Below the pieces are notes generated by a model. The model ran no database searches and was not told the origin of the DNA. It was given only the letters and a program-made list of their open reading frames with translations. Shown here piece by piece: positions 9,437-63,533 of a stretch of DNA of 64,000 bases. Every line of letters begins with the position of its first letter. The stretch's first letter is position 1. The position numbers were made by a program, and so were the translations under genes. This DNA is from Eledone cirrhosa (Eukaryota), in the NCBI GenBank assembly GCA_964016885.1, contig OZ024762.1:23374001-23438000 (forward strand), read 5' to 3'.

Positions 9437-9467
<31 letters not shown>

Positions 9468-9597
9468 GGAAAGTTATATTTAAAATGTTGGGTTACAACG
9501 AGTAAATATTTATAACTGATATAAAAGCACTCAACAAGTATTTGGAGTATATTTACGATATTAAATAAATGGAAATTATATTTATAAAACCATATTT

Positions 9598-9661
9598 ATT
9601 TCATTATATATATTTCAGGGATATCATATTAACAATATGTTATGCCTTCTTCAGACAAAAT
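9598..9661 (-). ncRNA. Type I hammerhead ribozyme motif (family A)
   Basis: Reverse complement of 9819-9882. Confidence 0.8.
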
Positions 9662-9818
9662 ACAATATAAACAGTCTTATAAATAAATAGATATGACATA
9701 CCTTTTCAAATATCAACTTGCATTTGTGAAGTTGATCTGCCAAATCAACTTCACAAATGCAAGTTGATATTTGAAAAGGTATGTCATATCTATTTATTTA
9801 TAAGACTGTTTATATTGT

Positions 9819-9882
9819 ATTTTGTCTGAAGAAGGCATAACATATTGTTAATATGATATCCCTGAAATATATATAATGAAAT
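9819..9882 (+). ncRNA. Type I hammerhead ribozyme motif (family A)
   Basis: attttgt-CTGAAGA-long stem II (agg..catatt/aatatg..cct)-GAAA-tatata-TA-atgaaat (7-bp stem I with two G-U), overlapping AATAAA. Confidence 0.8.
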
Positions 9883-9924
9883 AAATATGGTTTTATAAAT
9901 ATAATTTCCATTTATTTAATATCG

Positions 9925-9958
<34 letters not shown>

Positions 9959-12264: not shown

Positions 12265-12303
<39 letters not shown>

Positions 12304-12654
12304 AAAACAAATAACGAAACGAAATTAAATTTCGTTTCGTTTGTAACTCACTTTTGTATGACTGACGCTTAAACAATTAAGTTAAAAATGTACATCTACA
12401 TATGCATACTGAAATACTAGTGTGTATATGAATACACACACGTATACATATGTAGGTGTACCAAGTCTTTCACTGGTCGCTTTACAGTGAGCGGCCCAGC
12501 TATTCTGTATGTAAACACACAGACAAACCGGTTTTTAGAGTCATACTGGTTTTTGGTCAGTCATACAAAAGTGAGTTACAAACGAAACGAAATTTAATTT
12601 CGTCTCGTTATTTGTTTTTATCGTCTCCGCTGAACCGGTGCGTACTCACACTCT

Positions 12655-12662
12655 ATGCAAAT
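12655..12662 (+). promoter_or_regulatory. Octamer motif ATGCAAAT (candidate internal promoter element)
   Basis: Conserved as tatgcaaattag at the equivalent position in three insertions (also 56667, 63225), 88-100 nt upstream of the HHR core; function inferred. Confidence 0.45.
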
Positions 12663-12747
12663 TAGTCTGCCCACTACTAATTTTCATAGAAAAAGCATAT
12701 AACGATATGTGCTTTTACAATTCTCCAGAAAGGCCGGTAGATAGGTA

Positions 12748-12792
12748 AATATTGCTGATGAGTTGTAACAACAACGAAACTAGTTCAATATT
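12748..12792 (+). ncRNA. Type I hammerhead ribozyme motif, canonical core
   Basis: aatattg-CTGATGA-gttgt/aaca/acaac-GAAA-ctag-TT-caatatt; perfect 7-bp stem I and 5-bp stem II; stem I extends via ttctccagaaag/ctttctggagaa (12721-12814). Confidence 0.92.
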
Positions 12793-13310
12793 CCTTGTCT
12801 GGCTTTCTGGAGAATAGGGGGAAGGTGTTCCCCCAAAAACCAGTATGACTCTAAAAACCGGTTTGTCTGTGTGTTTACATACAGAATAGCTGGGCCGCTC
12901 ACTGTAAAGCGACCAGTGAAAGACTTGGTACACCTACATATGTATACGTGTGTGTATTCATATACACACTAGTATTTCAGTATGCATATGTAGATGTAGA
13001 TTTTTAACTTTTTAACTTATATATATTTATATATATGTATATTAAAATCTCGTCTAGGTTATATTTCCATGGTTTCCAAAACACTCCACTTGTTAGTCAA
13101 ATCTTGAAACTTATATTTAAAGAATGAAACTTATATTTAAGTATCAGCCGTACTAAGAGTAAGAAATGAAATTTCATTTTTTCCATATATATATATATTC
13201 ATACTTACCGATATCTTCTGTATATATATTCATATATATATACACAGAAGATAAATATATATATATATATATAAATATGTATTATATTCATATATATATA
13301 TATATATTAT

Positions 13311-16924: not shown

Positions 16925-16926
<2 letters not shown>

Positions 16927-17808
16927 CGATATTAAACAAATGGAAACTATATTTATAAAACCATATTTATTTCATTATACATATTTCAGGGATACCATAT
17001 TAAAAATATGGCATGCCTTCGTCAGATAATTCAAATTTATATGACATGACGTAAAGATGTAACTGTATCCTTCTCTCTATATATATAGCTCTTTCTCCTC
17101 TCTCTTTATATATGATGAAGTATTATGTATCTGTCGCTTTGGTTTTGCCTCTCTTATTTCTCTCTTGTTTTTTCACTTCCCCCTATCTAGTTATATTTTT
17201 TCTCTTTCTTTTCCTGCCCCCTCTTTCTCTCCGTTTTCTCTTTATCTCCATTTTTTCTTTCTCTCCGTCTTTTCTCTAACTATGCTTAACACTATAACTA
17301 AATAATTGCTGTACTCTCTCTCTATATAGTACTCCCTCTCCCTTGAATCTCTCTATTTGTATGGTGGATTATTATTATGTATCTGTTGCTTTCGGTTGCC
17401 TCTCTTTTTTCACCTCCTCCCTATTTCTCTCTCCCCTCTCTGTCTCTCTGTTTTTCTTTACCTCCGTTTCTTCTTTTTCTCCGTCTTTTTTCTAACTGTG
17501 CTTAACACTATAACTAAATAATTATAAAAACATCACTACCGAGGTAGCCTCCTAATTTAATGGTCGCTTAAATTATGGTACGTCAAAATTATTTATAAAA
17601 CTGTTTATATATTGTATTTTATCTCACGAAGGCATGCCATATTTTTAATATGGTATCCCTGAAATATGTATAATGGAATAAATATGGTTTTATAAATATA
17701 GTTTCCATTTGTTTAATATCGTATATCTACTCCAAAAACTTGTCGAGTGCTTTATATCAGTTATAAAATATTTACTTGTTGTAACCCAACAATTTTAAAT
17801 AAAACTTT

Positions 17809-17812
<4 letters not shown>
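16925..17812. mobile_element. Two-armed family A insertion (short - arm, ~780-bp + arm with full tail)
   Basis: 16925-17028 is inverted relative to ~17620-17723; + arm has an internal ~230-250 bp duplication; HHR on - has core CTGACGA, HHR on + (17616-17679) has mutated CTCACGA. Confidence 0.85.
16969..17030 (-). ncRNA. Type I hammerhead ribozyme motif (family A variant)
   Basis: at-CTGACGA-agg..ccatatt/aatatgg..cct-GAAA-tatgta-TA-atgaaat; stem I truncated at the arm junction. Confidence 0.65.
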
Positions 17813-17879
<67 letters not shown>

Positions 17880-17933
17880 TTATATATATATATTTATATT
17901 TATATATTTATATATATATATATATATTTATAT

Positions 17934-20900
17934 ATATTAGAAAGATCGAGTATCGAAAAATCGGCGCACGAGTTCACGAAAAACGAAATTCGATATGAGC
18001 GGCAGAGGGCTCAATAATTCAGATGAATCAGAGCTATAACTATCGTTAAAATACCGTCACATATAGAACAAGTCTACAATCAACCATACGATTTAAAATC
18101 GATAAAGGAAGATTCGGGCCAAACAGATAAAAAATATCAATAAAACAATACGTCAAAAATTTAAATGAATGTAAAATCATACCCGGACCCACTAGAAAGG
18201 TGTTAAATCTAGCTTCATGGGTTTCTGTAAATCCTTAGACAGTACTCTATCAGCTCACATATAAATATAAAAGCCTGCTAGAATAAGTGGAACGGAGTTT
18301 ACGTTGTCAACGAGTTTTATCCTGGCGGCAAAGGAGTCAACTAGCGGTGAAAAACGCACATGGCATTAGACAAGGGAGATGACCCCTATATCCGCGAAAA
18401 CAATTCGAGTGAATGTGGAAATACACATATCGAATTAGAGTGCTCAATAGACATGTTAAAATAAAACAAAAGCTATTCATCACTCAATAGAATCGACAAA
18501 AAATGAGCAATAAAATTAACTGGTGGATAGCTATGTCCAGAGCTAAATATATTAGAAAGATCGAGTATCGAAAAATCGGCGCACGAGTTCACGAAAAACG
18601 AAATTCGATATGAGCGGCAGAGGGCTCAATAATTCAGATGAATCAGAGCTATAACTATCGTTAAAATACCGTCACATATAGAACAAGTCTACAATCAACC
18701 ATACGATTTAAAATCGATAAAGGAAGATTCGGGCCAAACAGATAAAAAATATCAATAAAACAATACGTCAAAAATTTAAATGAATGTAAAATCATACCCG
18801 GACCCACTAGAAAGGTGTTAAATCTAGCTTCATGGGTTTCTGTAAATCCTTAGACAGTACTCTATCAGCTCACATATAAATATAAAAGCCTGCTAGAATA
18901 AGTGGAACGGAGTTTACGTTGTCAACGAGTTTTATCCTGGCGGCAAAGGAGTCAACTAGCGGTGAAAAACGCACATGGCATTAGACAAGGGAGATGACCC
19001 CTATATCCGCGAAAACAATTCGAGTGAATGTGGAAATACACATATCGAATTAGAGTGCTCAATAGACATGTTAAAATAAAACAAAAGCTATTCATCACTC
19101 AATAGAATCGACAAAAAATGAGCAATAAAATTAACTGGTGGATAGCTATGTCCAGAGCTAAATATATTAGAAAGATCGAGTATCGAAAAATCGGCGCACG
19201 AGTTCACGAAAAACGAAATTCGATATGAGCGGCAGAGGGCTCAATAATTCAGATGAATCAGAGCTATAACTATCGTTAAAATACCGTCACATATAGAACA
19301 AGTCTACAATCAACCATACGATTTAAAATCGATAAAGGAAGATTCGGGCCAAACAGATAAAAAATATCAATAAAACAATACGTCAAAAATTTAAATGAAT
19401 GTAAAATCATACCCGGACCCACTAGAAAGGTGTTAAATCTAGCTTCATGGGTTTCTGTAAATCCTTAGACAGTACTCTATCAGCTCACATATAAATATAA
19501 AAGCCTGCTAGAATAAGTGGAACGGAGTTTACGTTGTCAACGAGTTTTATCCTGGCGGCAAAGGAGTCAACTAGCGGTGAAAAACGCACATGGCATTAGA
19601 CAAGGGAGATGACCCCTATATCCGCGAAAACAATTCGAGTGAATGTGGAAATACACATATCGAATTAGAGTGCTCAATAGACATGTTAAAATAAAACAAA
19701 AGCTATTCATCACTCAATAGAATCGACAAAAAATGAGCAATAAAATTAACTGGTGGATAGCTATGTCCAGAGCTAAATATATTAGAAAGATCGAGTATCG
19801 AAAAATCGGCGCACGAGTTCACGAAAAACGAAATTCGATATGAGCGGCAGAGGGCTCAATAATTCAGATGAATCAGAGCTATAACTATCGTTAAAATACC
19901 GTCACATATAGAACAAGTCTACAATCAACCATACGATTTAAAATCGATAAAGGAAGATTCGGGCCAAACAGATAAAAAATATCAATAAAACAATACGTCA
20001 AAAATTTAAATGAATGTAAAATCATACCCGGACCCACTAGAAAGGTGTTAAATCTAGCTTCATGGGTTTCTGTAAATCCTTAGACAGTACTCTATCAGCT
20101 CACATATAAATATAAAAGCCTGCTAGAATAAGTGGAACGGAGTTTACGTTGTCAACGAGTTTTATCCTGGCGGCAAAGGAGTCAACTAGCGGTGAAAAAC
20201 GCACATGGCATTAGACAAGGGAGATGACCCCTATATCCGCGAAAACAATTCGAGTGAATGTGGAAATACACATATCGAATTAGAGTGCTCAATAGACATG
20301 TTAAAATAAAACAAAAGCTATTCATCACTCAATAGAATCGACAAAAAATGAGCAATAAAATTAACTGGTGGATAGCTATGTCCAGAGCTAAATATATTAG
20401 AAAGATCGAGTATCGAAAAATCGGCGCACGAGTTCACGAAAAACGAAATTCGATATGAGCGGCAGAGGGCTCAATAATTCAGATGAATCAGAGCTATAAC
20501 TATCGTTAAAATACCGTCACATATAGAACAAGTCTACAATCAACCATACGATTTAAAATCGATAAAGGAAGATTCGGGCCAAACAGATAAAAAATATCAA
20601 TAAAACAATACGTCAAAAATTTAAATGAATGTAAAATCATACCCGGACCCACTAGAAAGGTGTTAAATCTAGCTTCATGGGTTTCTGTAAATCCTTAGAC
20701 AGTACTCTATCAGCTCACATATAAATATAAAAGCCTGCTAGAATAAGTGGAACGGAGTTTACGTTGTCAACGAGTTTTATCCTGGCGGCAAAGGAGTCAA
20801 CTAGCGGTGAAAAACGCACATGGCATTAGACAAGGGAGATGACCCCTATATCCGCGAAAACAATTCGAGTGAATGTGGAAATACACATATCGAATTAGAG

Positions 20901-22885
20901 TGCTCAATAGACATGTTAAAATAAAACAAAAGCTATTCATCACTCAATAGAATCGACAAAAAATGAGCAATAAAATTAACTGGTGGATAGCTATGTCCAG
21001 AGCTAAATATATTAGAAAGATCGAGTATCGAAAAATCGGCGCACGAGTTCACGAAAAACGAAATTCGATATGAGCGGCAGAGGGCTCAATAATTCAGATG
21101 AATCAGAGCTATAACTATCGTTAAAATACCGTCACATATAGAACAAGTCTACAATCAACCATACGATTTAAAATCGATAAAGGAAGATTCGGGCCAAACA
21201 GATAAAAAATATCAATAAAACAATACGTCAAAAATTTAAATGAATGTAAAATCATACCCGGACCCACTAGAAAGGTGTTAAATCTAGCTTCATGGGTTTC
21301 TGTAAATCCTTAGACAGTACTCTATCAGCTCACATATAAATATAAAAGCCTGCTAGAATAAGTGGAACGGAGTTTACGTTGTCAACGAGTTTTATCCTGG
21401 CGGCAAAGGAGTCAACTAGCGGTGAAAAACGCACATGGCATTAGACAAGGGAGATGACCCCTATATCCGCGAAAACAATTCGAGTGAATGTGGAAATACA
21501 CATATCGAATTAGAGTGCTCAATAGACATGTTAAAATAAAACAAAAGCTATTCATCACTCAATAGAATCGACAAAAAATGAGCAATAAAATTAACTGGTG
21601 GATAGCTATGTCCAGAGCTAAATATATTAGAAAGATCGAGTATCGAAAAATCGGCGCACGAGTTCACGAAAAACGAAATTCGATATGAGCGGCAGAGGGC
21701 TCAATAATTCAGATGAATCAGAGCTATAACTATCGTTAAAATACCGTCACATATAGAACAAGTCTACAATCAACCATACGATTTAAAATCGATAAAGGAA
21801 GATTCGGGCCAAACAGATAAAAAATATCAATAAAACAATACGTCAAAAATTTAAATGAATGTAAAATCATACCCGGACCCACTAGAAAGGTGTTAAATCT
21901 AGCTTCATGGGTTTCTGTAAATCCTTAGACAGTACTCTATCAGCTCACATATAAATATAAAAGCCTGCTAGAATAAGTGGAACGGAGTTTACGTTGTCAA
22001 CGAGTTTTATCCTGGCGGCAAAGGAGTCAACTAGCGGTGAAAAACGCACATGGCATTAGACAAGGGAGATGACCCCTATATCCGCGAAAACAATTCGAGT
22101 GAATGTGGAAATACACATATCGAATTAGAGTGCTCAATAGACATGTTAAAATAAAACAAAAGCTATTCATCACTCAATAGAATCGACAAAAAATGAGCAA
22201 TAAAATTAACTGGTGGATAGCTATGTCCAGAGCTAAATATATTAGAAAGATCGAGTATCGAAAAATCGGCGCACGAGTTCACGAAAAACGAAATTCGATA
22301 TGAGCGGCAGAGGGCTCAATAATTCAGATGAATCAGAGCTATAACTATCGTTAAAATACCGTCACATATAGAACAAGTCTACAATCAACCATACGATTTA
22401 AAATCGATAAAGGAAGATTCGGGCCAAACAGATAAAAAATATCAATAAAACAATACGTCAAAAATTTAAATGAATGTAAAATCATACCCGGACCCACTAG
22501 AAAGGTGTTAAATCTAGCTTCATGGGTTTCTGTAAATCCTTAGACAGTACTCTATCAGCTCACATATAAATATAAAAGCCTGCTAGAATAAGTGGAACGG
22601 AGTTTACGTTGTCAACGAGTTTTATCCTGGCGGCAAAGGAGTCAACTAGCGGTGAAAAACGCACATGGCATTAGACAAGGGAGATGACCCCTATATCCGC
22701 GAAAACAATTCGAGTGAATGTGGAAATACACATATCGAATTAGAGTGCTCAATAGACATGTTAAAATAAAACAAAAGCTATTCATCACTCAATAGAATCG
22801 ACAAAAAATGAGCAATAAAATTAACTGGTGGATAGCTATGTCCAGAGCTAAATATATTAGAAAGATCGAGTATCGAAAAATCGGC
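17934..22885. repeat. Tandem array of 8 apparently identical 615-bp units plus ~30 bp of a ninth
   Basis: aaagatcgagtatcg recurs at 17941, 18556, 19171, 19786, 20401, 21016, 21631, 22246, 22861; no differences seen between units; (TA)n both sides; no ORF of 60 aa or more within the unit. Confidence 0.97.
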
Positions 22886-22933
22886 TATTTATATATATAT
22901 ATTTATATTTATATATATATATATATATTTATT

Positions 22934-22965
<32 letters not shown>

Positions 22966-22975
22966 TATATATATA

Positions 22976-23040
<65 letters not shown>

Positions 23041-23061
23041 TTATATATATATAAATATATT

Positions 23062-23120
<59 letters not shown>

Positions 23121-23319
23121 ATATTTATATTTATATATATATATTTATATATATATATTTCGTTTCTGAATTTGTTTAGCAAGATTCTTTATCTGAAATC
23201 GTGTGTTGAAACCGATATTGTTATACTTTGGGAGGGGCATACTTTGGGAGTGAAAGCAACTGGTGCGTGTGTTTCTTATTGGCAACATGACCCTCCCAAA
23301 GTATAACAATATATATATA

Positions 23320-23434
<115 letters not shown>

Positions 23435-23524
23435 ATTTATATATATATATAAATATATATATATATATTTATATATATTTATATATATATATATTTATAT
23501 ATATATATATATATTTATATATAT

Positions 23525-23909
23525 GCAAAGTTTTATTTAAATTGTTGGGTTACAACGAGTAAATATTTATAACTGATATAAAAGCACTCAACAAGTATTT
23601 GGAGTATATTTACGATATTAATTAAATGGAAACTATATTTATAAAACCATATTTATTTCATTATATATATTTCAGGGATATCATATTAAAAATATGTTAT
23701 GCCTTCTTCAGACAAAATACAATATAAACAGTCTTATAAATAGATAGATTTGACATACCTTTCATGTCAAATCTATCTATTTATAAGACTGTTTATATTG
23801 TATTTTGTCTGAAGAAGGCATAACATATTTTTAATATGATATCCCTGAAATATATATAATGAAATAAATATGGTTTTATAAATATAGTTTCCATTTATTT
23901 AATATCGTA
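23525..23909. mobile_element. Foldback family A insertion with opposed hammerheads (23655-23718 on -, 23802-23865 on +)
   Basis: Same outer termini as 9468-9926 but a different central junction (~23760); both HHRs have CTGAAGA/GAAA/TA intact. Confidence 0.9.
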
Positions 23910-24509: not shown

Positions 24510-24580
<71 letters not shown>

Positions 24581-24635
24581 CGTAAAATAATAAAAAAATT
24601 TTAAAAAGTTTTTAAAAAATTTACTTAAATTTTCA

Positions 24636-24715
24636 CTCCAACTAATTAGTTTCTGCAATGGGATAAAGACAGTTACGTAATGAACTGTTGAGAATTTCAT
24701 TGCGTCATCAGGGAG
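24636..24715 (-). ncRNA. Type I hammerhead with extended stem II
   Basis: ctcc-CTGATGA-c gcaatg...acagtt/aactgt...cattgc a-GAAA-ctaattag(palindrome)-TT-ggag. Confidence 0.85.
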
Positions 24716-25184
24716 GTCTATTCTCAGCCAAGTTTCCAGGCAATGCGCGGACACTGGCGACTCATATAAAAATAATAATAATTCGGTAAATGGAACAACT
24801 ATCGCGGACTGGATTCCAGGCACTGAAAATTCTCACTGCCACTGGTCAAATGGCCGATTCTAAAGAATCAATCACGTGACACAGAGGCTAGTCAGTAGGA
24901 ATGGGGTGGTAAGATGACAGACGCCTACTAACACCCCCAAAAAAATTTAGAAGTGGTTTTGGCAGGTTTGCTCGACAAATCAGTGATTTGGAGATAAATA
25001 TAAATAATTTAATATATCAACTAACATAAGCGCACAGATGTACGCTAATGCCAGCAAATACACAGGTTATGTCATAGTACCTAGGTGGTTCAATGCAGGA
25101 GGATGCAGAACAATAATATAAAAGACGTAAAATAAGAAAATTTTTTTAAAAAAATTTTTTAAAATTTACTTACTTAAATTTTTA

Positions 25185-25264
25185 CTCCAACTAATTAGTT
25201 TCTGCAATGGGATAAAGACAGTTACGTAATGAACTGTTGAGAATTTCATTGCGTCATCAGGGAG
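25185..25264 (-). ncRNA. Type I hammerhead with extended stem II (second copy)
   Basis: Identical to 24636-24715, 549 bp away. Confidence 0.85.
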
Positions 25265-25618
25265 GTCTATTCTCAGCCAAGTCTACAGGCAATGCGCGGA
25301 CACTGGGGACTCATATAAAAATAATAATAATTCGGTAAATGGACTCCAAGGAAGTGGTTAAAGGGGGTTATCTGCCGGGAGGCCCTATAATCAATATCTG
25401 GAAAAGAAAAGTTCCCATGACCATCCGGAGTACATAAGTAACCTATGTCTTAAGTTTGGTGAAAATACTGTAGAAATGCATAAGGTTTACACACGCGCGC
25501 ACGTGTGTGTGTATGTGTGTGTGTATTTGTGTGTGCGTATGTATATGTATGTTCGTCGGCGCATACGTATGTACTGGCCTAAATCTTCACTATTTACTTT
25601 TACTATGTTAAGGCAAAG

Positions 25619-35984: not shown

Positions 35985-36802
35985 ATATGAAAACATGGCG
36001 TGCTGCGTGGTTGCAAATGGGTTACATATGAATAAAATTAGTCCTTCATCAGTGATCTTCCAACCTTCATTAGTATTTCATCGCTTTAAAGACCATATAC
36101 CTCCGGTTGGTGCGAGCAACGGCTGAAGAAAGTCGTTGGGACACGTAAATAAGGGGAATGAGCGAGACTAAACAATTAAAGATGGTAATGCAACGAATAG
36201 TGAGGAAGAATGAGTCGAGTCCCTGAAATCGTTGAACATAAGTTCTGTGAAAACGTGGACGAGAGAGAATAAAGACCATCAAACCTGATCGAAATGTGAG
36301 CAAGGATAGAATTTCGCACAGGTCAAACGGGAAGAAGAAGGAGTCAAGTCCCTGAAATCGGTGAACATAAGTTCTGTGAAATCGTAGACGAGAGAGAATA
36401 AAGACCATCAAACCTGATCGAAATGTGAGCAAGGATAGAATTTTGCACAGGTCAAACGGGAAGAAGAAGGAGTCAAGTCCCTGAAATCGGTGAACATAAG
36501 TTCTGTGAAATCGTAGACGAGAGAGAATAAAAAACACCCGACCTGGTGAAAGTGTGCGTGAGGAAAGAATTTCGCACAGGTCCTACTTCCTCCCGTTTGA
36601 CCTGTGCGTTGACTCCTTCTTCCTCACTTTTCGTTGCATTACCATCTTTGATTGTTTACAGTCTCGCTCGTTCCCCTTATTTACGTGTCCCAACGACTTT
36701 TTTTAGCCGCTGCTCGCACCAACCGGAGGTATATGGTTTTTAAAGCAATGAAATACCAATGAAAGTTGGAAGATCACTGATGAAGGACTAATTTTATTCA
36801 TA
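35985..36802. mobile_element. Two-armed insertion with internal 129-bp tandem repeat (about 3 copies)
   Basis: 36027-36210 is inverted relative to ~36615-36802; ccctgaaatc recurs at 36221, 36350, 36479; left arm has a ~45-nt tail; (TA)n flanks. Confidence 0.75.
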
Positions 36803-55835: not shown

Positions 55836-56289
55836 GCAAGGTTTTTGATGATATGAAATCGTGTGTCGAAACAAATATATATATATAAAAATTAATTTAT
55901 ATATATATATAAATTTATATATATATATAAATTATATATATATATATATATATAAAAATTAATTTATATATATATATATATATAAAAATTAAATTGAAAC
56001 AAAATGAAAACGAAATTTCATTTCTCACTCTTAGTATGGCACTTACTTAAATGTAAGTATGCATGTATACGTACATACATATATGTATACAGACGTACAG
56101 TAGCATGCACATATATATATATACATATATATATACATATGTATACAGGTACACATACATATATGCACGTATCAGTTTAGCGGCGCTAACGTCGCTTTGT
56201 TCGTTTGTAAACAAACTGAACAGCCTGAATTTATGCCATACGGTGTTAAGGCAACCACGTCACCTTTTTGTTCAACACTGACACAGGAA

Positions 56290-56330
56290 CGATGTACTAG
56301 TTTCAAGCTTGTTAGCTATCATCAGCACCG
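56290..56330 (-). ncRNA. Type I hammerhead ribozyme motif
   Basis: Reverse complement of 56750-56790. Confidence 0.85.
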
Positions 56331-56472
56331 TTTACCCATCTGCCAGATAGTTGAACGTTCGAAAGTATATACTTTCCTTATGAAAATTAACGGCTGAGCA
56401 GCCTAATTAGCGCCGCTAAACTGATACGTGCATATATGTATGTGTACCTGTATACATATGTATATATATATG

Positions 56473-56507
<35 letters not shown>

Positions 56508-56749
56508 GTGCATGCTACTGTACGTCTGTATACATATATGTATGTACGTATACATGCATACTTACATTTAAGTAAGTGCCATACTAAGAGTGAGAAATGA
56601 AATTTCGTTTTCATTTTGTTTCAATTTATCGTTTTCGGTATGCCTGACCGATTTAACTCACTCAATATGCAAATTAGGCTGCTCAGCCGTTAATTTTCAT
56701 AAGGAAAGTATATACTTTCGAACGTTCAACTATCTGGCAGATGGGTAAA

Positions 56750-56790
56750 CGGTGCTGATGATAGCTAACAAGCTTGAAACTAGTACATCG
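56750..56790 (+). ncRNA. Type I hammerhead ribozyme motif
   Basis: cggtg-CTGATGA-t agct/aaca/agct t-GAAA-ctag-TA-catcg; stem I extends via ctggca/tgtcag and gttcaac/gttgaac. Confidence 0.87.
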
Positions 56791-57351
56791 TTCCTGTGTC
56801 AGTGTTGAACAAAAAGGTGACGTGGTTGCCTTAACACCGTATGGCATAAATTCAGGCTGTTCAGTTTGTTTACAAACGAACAAAGCGACGTTAGCGCCGC
56901 TAAACTGATACGTGCATATATGTATGTGTACCTGTATACATATGTATATATATATGTATATATATATATATATGTGCATGCTACTGTACGTCTGTATACA
57001 TATATGTATGTACGTATACATGCATACTTACATTTATATAAAAATTAATTTATATATATATATATATATATAAAAATTAATTTATATATATATATATATA
57101 TAAAAATTAATTTATATATATATATATATATAATATAATATTTATATATATATATAATATTATATTTATATATATATATATATATAATATTATATATATA
57201 TATAAATTATTATATATATATATATATATATATAAATTATTATATATATATATATATATATAAATTATTATATATATATATATATATAAATTATTATATA
57301 TATATATATATATATATATAAATTATTATATATATATATATATATATAAAT

Positions 57352-59811: not shown

Positions 59812-60011
59812 NNNNNNNNNNNNNNNNNNNNNNNNNNNNNNNNNNNNNNNNNNNNNNNNNNNNNNNNNNNNNNNNNNNNNNNNNNNNNNNNNNNNNNNNN
59901 NNNNNNNNNNNNNNNNNNNNNNNNNNNNNNNNNNNNNNNNNNNNNNNNNNNNNNNNNNNNNNNNNNNNNNNNNNNNNNNNNNNNNNNNNNNNNNNNNNNN
60001 NNNNNNNNNNN
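59812..60011. other. Assembly gap (200 N)
   Basis: Run of N between a (TA)n array and a C-rich minisatellite. Confidence 1.
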
Positions 60012-62394: not shown

Positions 62395-62596
62395 CGAAGG
62401 AAATGTGGTAAGGAACCAGGTGGATCATAACGCACCAAAGTACTCAATACTTAGGGTAGTAGAGTGGGTAATAGGAACGAGTAGGACCCCGACGGCTGAG
62501 CTCAAACCGTTTCAACGGCTAATTCTGGACTAAAAAGTTCAGAATTAGCCGTCGAAACGGCTTGAGCTCAGCCGTCGGGCTCCTACTCGTTCCTAT
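62392..62596. mobile_element. Short two-armed insertion of the 39346-41975 PLE family terminus
   Basis: - arm carries the full tail (ataacgaaggaaatgtggtaagg...); + arm ends at ctactcgttccta; (TA)n flanks. Confidence 0.8.
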
Positions 62597-62597
62597 A

Positions 62598-62661
<64 letters not shown>

Positions 62662-62666
<5 letters not shown>

Positions 62667-63533
62667 GGAAAAAATGAAATTTTAATTCTCACACTTAGTA
62701 CGGCTGATACTTAAATATAAGTATGTATACGTACATACATATATGTATACAGACGTACACTAGTATGTATATACATGCATACATGCACACATATATATAT
62801 GTACGTATGGGTTTACCGAACATATATTATAATGCTCGGTTTGTTTGTAAACAAACAGCCCAAATTATTAGCCGTACAGTGTTCGGGAACCATCGTTCAA
62901 CCTTTTGTGCAACACTGACAAAGAAACGATGAACTAGTTTCTAGCTTATTAGCTGTCATCAGCACCGTATACCTTCCTGTCAGTCGAGTGAACGTTTGAA
63001 AGTATATACTTTCCTTATAATAAATGTTCGGTAAACCCATACGTACATATATACATATGTGTGTGCATGTATGTATATACATACTACTGTACGTCTGTAT
63101 ACATATATATATATGTACGTATACATACTTATATTTAAGTATCAGCCGTACTAAGAGTGAAAAATGAAATTTCGTTTTTTCCATTTATCGTTTTCGGTAC
63201 ACCAGGCCGACTAAATCACTCGATATGCAAATTAGGCTGCTCAGCCGTTAATAGGCGTAAGGAAAGTATATACTTTCAAACGTTCAATCAACTGAGAGGA
63301 AGGTATACGGTGATGATGACAGCTAATAAGCTAGAAACTAGTTCATCGTTCCTTTGTCAAGTGTTCATCAAAAGGCCAACGATGGTTGCCGAACACTGTT
63401 TACAAACAAACCGAATATTATAATATATGTTCAATAAACACATACGTACATATATATATATATGTGTGCATGTGTAAATATACATACTACTGTACGTCTG
63501 TATACATATATGTATGTACGTATACATACTTAT
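62662..63533. mobile_element. Retrozyme-like element (octamer + HHR family): - arm 62662-63020, + arm longer than one monomer
   Basis: Homologous to 55990-57036; catacgtacatat recurs 403 bp apart; octamer 63225-63232; HHR on - intact, HHR on + (63308-63348) has ATGATGA. Confidence 0.85.
62927..62967 (-). ncRNA. Type I hammerhead ribozyme motif
   Basis: cggtg-CTGATGA-c agct/aata/agct a-GAAA-ctag-TT-catcg. Confidence 0.85.

Follow-up and report, generated by a model that had tools for sequence, protein, structure and literature searches.

The window (the whole 64,000-nucleotide stretch of Eledone cirrhosa contig OZ024762.1 that was analysed) contains an array of eight 615-bp units arranged head to tail (17934-22853), which is read here, at about even confidence, as a young, non-coding, non-autonomous and hammerhead-less retroelement inserted recently, in one event, by the machinery of Penelope-like elements (PLEs) acting in trans. 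This reading builds on the layout of the array, the identity of its copies, the lack of an open reading frame or known ribozyme, the PLE-type neighbours in the same tracts and the family members found in other sequencing runs. The array is a real feature of the assembly, its copy number and flanks being given as assembled, from the assembly sequence alone.

The eight units start at positions 17934, 18549, 19164, 19779, 20394, 21009, 21624 and 22239 and were compared directly with unit 1, yielding 0 differences; the identity noted in the first-pass annotation thus holds over all 4952 bp. The 615-nt periodicity spans 17932-22885, so that eight units are followed by 32 nt if the count begins at 17934 and by 34 nt if it begins at 17932. 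The terminal redundancy, previously put at about 30 bp, was accordingly measured as 32-34 nt, or 28-34 nt when microhomology is allowed for, and consists of the first 32 nt of a ninth unit (22854-22885), as delimited by periodicity and motif count. The left boundary of the array is imprecise and the overhang is given as 28-34 nt because the unit's own ATATAT (17932-17937) belongs to the left (TA)n tract as well as to the unit junction and merges into the repeat; the right boundary is sharp and lacks homology to the flank. The same sequence opens and closes the array, as originally described: the terminal motif occurs nine times in the window, every time within the array (0 expected from 100 shuffles), and no further copy of the unit was detected elsewhere in the window by blastn or motif count. 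The reported (TA)n context was likewise recovered, with tracts at 17812-17937 on the left and 22886-23159 on the right. A 13-bp target duplication is formally possible, yet 630 of 1027 random starts in the local tracts match equally well, so that a target-site duplication is indistinguishable from background.

The unit comprises 250 A, 142 T, 115 G and 108 C (36% GC) and is A-rich on the plus strand. Its CpG observed/expected ratio of 1.34 exceeds that of all 25 low-microsatellite 615-bp bins compared elsewhere in the window (median 0.86). The longest stop-free frame covers 62 codons, all six frames contain the three types of stop codon, and no endless reading frame was found, despite a unit length that is a multiple of three; the earlier description of a non-coding, CpG-containing and strand-asymmetric unit is therefore accurate.

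The proposed kinship with neighbouring tandem hammerhead families was not upheld. No canonical hammerhead core was found in the array (20 core motifs lie elsewhere in the window), and a relaxed hammerhead scan of both strands of the unit returned a best score of 7, which was equalled by 16 of 200 shuffles, and no three-stem match. In control scans, four of seven window regions scored 11-16 and three gave nothing. A candidate variant hammerhead near 18186-18253 (minus strand) was rejected, as stem I is absent and the score lies at shuffle level. The Rfam scan suggested in the first-pass annotation gave no match for the unit, only two chance hits (E 1.7 and 5), and none at gathering level for the whole window, a threshold that is insensitive here because the window's real minimal hammerheads also escaped it. 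Searches of the unit for tRNAs found none, and those for the HDV loop motif and pseudoknots yielded nothing above shuffles. Folding is modest, with z-scores of -1.56 and -2.20 for the linear unit and -1.28 (plus strand) and -2.23 (minus strand) for the circular form, in which 52-59% of the positions are paired in a fold that is not rod-like. Each unit carries a weak stem-loop at phase 13-38 (17946-17971, plus strand; -5.8 kcal/mol on plus, -3.6 on minus), and the right end of the array comes directly after its inner 4-bp stem; the best 25-nt hairpin of the unit was equalled by 27 of 60 shuffles and is not significant. One 11-bp inverted pair was found (phases 54 and 493), no more than expected by chance, and it shows non-compensatory changes in one of the sequencing runs described below (X8).

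The neighbourhood holds PLE-type sequences. An open reading frame at 6548-8527 matches reverse transcriptase (RVT_1, E 8e-11), and its atlas neighbours combine RVT_1 with HTH_animal, some of them also with GIY-YIG; the frame, on the plus strand, is PLE-like, stop-free over 659 codons, 53% GC and bordered by inverted segments on either side. A GIY-YIG fragment in the window is weak (E 0.003, below cutoff). Left of the array lies a decayed hammerhead-bearing element end of inferred PLE origin (17589-17812, plus strand, damaged core), with an extension of roughly 90 nt into the left tract, and this family has an unextended end at 16926-17029 on the minus strand (three stems, score 12). On the other side, an inverted pair of hammerhead-bearing ends (23524-23905, score 14 at 23809), one with and one without the extension, terminates in (TA)n at both ends. 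The family occurs three times as inverted pairs (9440-9932, 16926-17812 and 23524-23905), each pairing a short 3' end with one about 90 nt longer and both running into (TA)n; where present, the extension has two to three times the length of the PLE tail given in the literature (30-40 bp). Since these ends show the described PLE layout, the flanking (TA)n tracts are probably PLE landing sites. Such tracts abound in the microsatellite-rich window, so the (TA)n target taken alone is weak evidence.

The hammerheads near the array belong to these dispersed inverted element ends. The neighbouring 129-bp tandem family at 36205-36582 contains none by the relaxed scan; its second half is hammerhead-like with an altered core start. 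It has 2.9 copies, adjacent ones differing at 20 of 249 positions, and an inverted partial copy comes after it. Copies at 24571-24794 and 25116-25343 on the minus strand, 93% identical, about 549 bp apart and possibly a pseudo-LTR pair, each contain a hammerhead core whose stem II is very short. Long inverted arrangements of other hammerhead-bearing families lie at 12300-13010 (with a hammerhead of three full stems at 12755), 55900-56960 and 62590-63200. The window also includes a scaffold gap of 200 N (59812-60011) and a dispersed repeat of about 200 bp, which we take to be an octopus SINE.

Published work on PLEs describes an extension of 30-40 bp at one end, a bias for (TA)n targets and undiscernible target duplications (PMC8557442). 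In vitro, the PLE tail is the stretch between two start sites of reverse transcription, priming occurs without homology to the target, AT-rich DNA is cut, and hammerhead cleavage is dispensable (PMC11167929). The array displays an extension of this type at one end (32-34 nt, or 28-34 nt with microhomology, at one locus), (TA)n on both sides and a tandem organisation, also seen in the runs X1, X2 and X8. Its 32-nt ninth-unit start is therefore a candidate PLE tail, its size matching the 30-40 bp given in both papers, and the overhang in (TA)n, whose likeness to the described tail the first-pass annotation had missed, would supply a known mechanism. If the minus strand is the sense strand, the ninth-unit start may instead be a 5'-truncated upstream copy.

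Under the favoured reading, a helper PLE enzyme, combining a GIY-YIG endonuclease with a reverse transcriptase, would have nicked a (TA)n tract and then reverse-transcribed a template bearing the repeated 615-nt unit, presumably RNA. An older array transcribed as a multimer may have supplied this template, or a monomeric circle may have been traversed about eight times. At one end the junction would have formed sharply without homology, and at the other by annealing of the ATATAT within the unit, leaving eight units and the overhang of 28-34 nt. As cephalopod Naiads are reported to be long inactive (PMC8557442), the helper would belong to a non-Naiad clade; 31 recently active Penelope-like families are described from Octopus vulgaris (PMC13282606). 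The absence of changes over 4952 bp corresponds to an age of less than about 170,000 years, provided that the copies were not smoothed and that the O. vulgaris clock (Jukes-Cantor distance 0.09 = 25 My; PMC13282606) applies. The sense strand of the unit may be plus or minus. The plus strand is favoured by an AT skew of 0.28, similar to the 0.21-0.27 of the coding strands of PLEs in the window, by the non-homologous right end and by a slightly better junction hairpin, the minus strand by a T-richness like that of the Naiad 3' ends in the supplement of PMC8557442, by the TA-microhomology end, as in the neighbouring elements, and by the better overall fold. Neither an A/G editing bias (11 of 17 transitions, p 0.43) nor CpG decay (1 of 27 changes, p 0.30) was significant. 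Membership in the PLEs is not established because no homology to an autonomous PLE was found in the window or with motifs from the unit in a published supplement, a single locus was available for judging whether the end phase is constant across dispersed copies, (TA)n is found everywhere in the window and the junctions are known from the assembly. Compared with the PLEs in the window, the unit gave a best other blastn match of E 0.12 and an empty six-frame tblastn; six short unit motifs, counted on both strands, are absent from the PLE supplement sequence shown in PMC8557442.

Among the closest likenesses are non-autonomous Chlamys PLEs such as MRC1 of Chlamydomonas reinhardtii (PMC8557442, PMC9940879), which are short, non-coding and often multicopy in head-to-tail order, like the array. 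Multicopy head-to-tail insertions are described for non-autonomous families in PMC8557442, which also reports that Naiad and most Chlamys elements lack canonical hammerheads; Chlamys elements favour microsatellite targets as well. In contrast to these elements, the array lies in an animal host and in a (TA)n target, and no 3' similarity to an autonomous partner was found in the window or with the supplement motifs, whereas a 3' end like that of autonomous elements is usual in the non-autonomous members of Chlamys (PMC8557442). The array is known from its sequence, and activity is not part of the likeness. With Naiad and canonical EN+ PLE insertions (PMC8557442; PAc of Anolis, PMC11167929) it shares the (TA)n or AT-rich target, the tandem layout, the one-end extension of 30-40 bp and the lack of a discernible target duplication; it differs in having neither a reverse transcriptase or GIY-YIG reading frame nor an inverted copy, and in consisting of eight complete identical units rather than a partial tandem. 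Animal non-LTR retrozymes, for which PLE dependence and rolling-circle spread have been proposed (PMC7229834; bioRxiv 10.64898/2026.07.22.740005), are also non-coding, low-GC tandem units. Described retrozymes carry a type I hammerhead per unit, are expressed as monomeric circular RNA and have monomers of 150-450 bp, whereas the unit here measures 615 bp and no hammerhead was found in it; the array is not a retrozyme.

The unit recurs in public sequencing data. Words of the 615-bp unit are contained in 17 of 24 listed runs, all 17 dating from 2022-2025 and none with a library on record; at least half of the unit words are present in nine runs (7 organism codes, 6 studies), and 13 (10 organism codes, 9 studies) reach a share of at least 0.25. 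A share of 0.00 was recorded for one run of organism O and for the second samples of organisms B, D and G, which is no proof of absence, and the 1,938 million letters of the Hi-C run X18 contained 0 reads of the unit, a zero that is not a test of absence; these zeros hint at patchiness and were not counted as evidence. Contigs were built for three of the 17 runs (X1, X2 and X8) and for X18, with the small-share runs X14-X17 left out. The head-to-tail join was present in all three, each with a contig crossing the unit junction unbroken and identities of about 92-99.7%. X1 yielded a main contig with two differences, accompanied by short variants with up to eight differences in 61 nt near the junction, X8 a main contig with 11 other letters and one gap in about 470 nt plus further variants down to about 92%, and X2 a single unbranched contig of 645 nt (615 + 30) that is joined back at 615, carries four other letters and has a depth of 12.8 and no loose ends. 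Reading this contig as a closed cycle presumes 31-letter words; such a cycle in a de Bruijn contig graph arises equally from a circle or a tandem array and carries no strand or RNA information. Main-contig depths of 12.8-52 in these runs are not copy numbers. In the contigs examined, none extended into flanking DNA in X1 or X2, and no flank junctions at the array ends were seen. Each of the three runs has its own fixed letters, and the letters at 18277 and 18772, carried by all eight copies in the window, differ from the main contigs of all three. The 615-bp unit is a natural family whose members were tandem or circular in every case observed, and its occurrence in independent studies, with natural variants and the same join, means that it was not invented by this assembly. 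A synthetic control or spike-in was rejected because the runs differ from one another. The single recent event proposed in the first-pass annotation is supported by the two window-private letters in all copies and by 0 differences within the array, while the family varies from run to run by 2, 4 and about 11 or more letters; identity of the copies, set beside a divergence of 0.3% to about 8% between runs, fits passage through one template. The data favour such a single-template bottleneck; a circle would provide it, but so would the copying of a uniform multimer or assembler smoothing. The near-identity of the unit across many organism labels is a surprise for which the PLE-passenger reading does not account.

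Several other explanations were weighed. A young low-copy satellite that arose without reverse transcription, through DNA-level amplification (unequal exchange, or re-insertion of extrachromosomal DNA copied by rolling circle) and homogenisation by concerted evolution, is unlikely but carries more weight than the readings that follow. It agrees with the non-coding head-to-tail units of X1, X2 and X8, the several diverged variants in X8 and the lack of a ribozyme, tRNA or strong fold, and leaves unaccounted for the tail-sized overhang and the clean insertion in (TA)n (a random phase would fall within 30-40 nt in an estimated ~2% of cases, 10/615); the neighbouring 129-bp tandem differs at 20 of 249 adjacent positions and the array at none. 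A conventional large satellite would form long, high-copy arrays; the locus in the window has eight copies. We regard as slightly less probable that a free 615-nt circle of RNA or DNA replicates and spreads from host to host, now and then being trapped in (TA)n, and that the array is one of its integrated concatemers. The 645-nt closed cycle of X2 (31-letter words presumed), the spread over 13 runs, 10 organism codes and 9 studies (share at least 0.25) with run-specific fixed letters, and the CpG ratio above all 25 local bins speak for it. A tandem array at low host coverage would, however, give an identical cycle, and the organism codes may all denote close kin of the host; a ribozyme was found on neither strand of the unit, its fold (52-59% paired) is not rod-like, none of its frames is endless, and exact-motif scans of viral contigs gave 0 matches. 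It thus shows neither the compact ribozyme-bearing fold nor the endless frame of viroid-like or zeta-like circles. The more specific version, in which Penelope-like reverse transcriptases sometimes copy a ribozyme-free circular replicon, itself transmitted between hosts or species, into (TA)n as a concatemer, appears doubtful; it would make the array a genomic trace of rolling-circle reverse transcription from a non-viroid circle.

An assembly or sample artefact, in which a real unit from a co-sampled organism or another locus was joined through (TA)n, or in which the assembler set the copy number or identity, is more doubtful still. Both junctions are of low complexity, the identity is perfect and the window has no other copy; against this, the unit and its join occur in independent studies with natural variants, a mis-join is not expected to produce a tail-sized overhang, and other repeats in the window keep their divergence. 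Very improbable is a tandem non-autonomous rolling-circle element (Helitron, Helentron or Replitron) or a tyrosine-recombinase DNA element. Helitrons and Helentrons are marked by a 5' TC and a 3' hairpin followed by CTRR, or by subterminal inverted repeats. The minus-strand end of the array, a hairpin, CTAA and then a target T, resembles a Helitron 3' end, but this CTAA-T is confined to the minus strand, no TC start occurs at the unit junctions or the other end, and the lone inverted pair at phases 54 and 493 is at chance level with non-compensatory changes in X8. Recent Helitron activity is reported in O. vulgaris (PMC13282606), and direct terminal repeats are known in Replitrons, which are described from plants, algae and protists (PMC10288648). 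For a recombinase element, a duplicated core would place ATATAT at both ends, which is not observed.

Wider searches gave no blastn match for the unit in plasmids and phages and no exact unit motif in viral contigs or prokaryote genomes; a 22-nt exact-motif match in a metagenome, in DNA of 67% GC, was dismissed as chance. No description of the 615-bp unit was found in the papers searched; the repeat supplement for O. vulgaris may contain this family. Should the unit-bearing runs come from distantly related species, or should the unit exist as a free circle, a new type of mobile circle would be at hand. If the PLE-passenger reading is true, hammerhead-less multicopy non-autonomous PLE passengers, known from Chlamydomonas, would extend to an animal, and arrays of this kind would be overlooked by hammerhead-based retrozyme pipelines. 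The array would then provide a very young, mutation-free substrate for tests of how PLE tails and tandems are formed, a question left open by PMC8557442 and PMC11167929.
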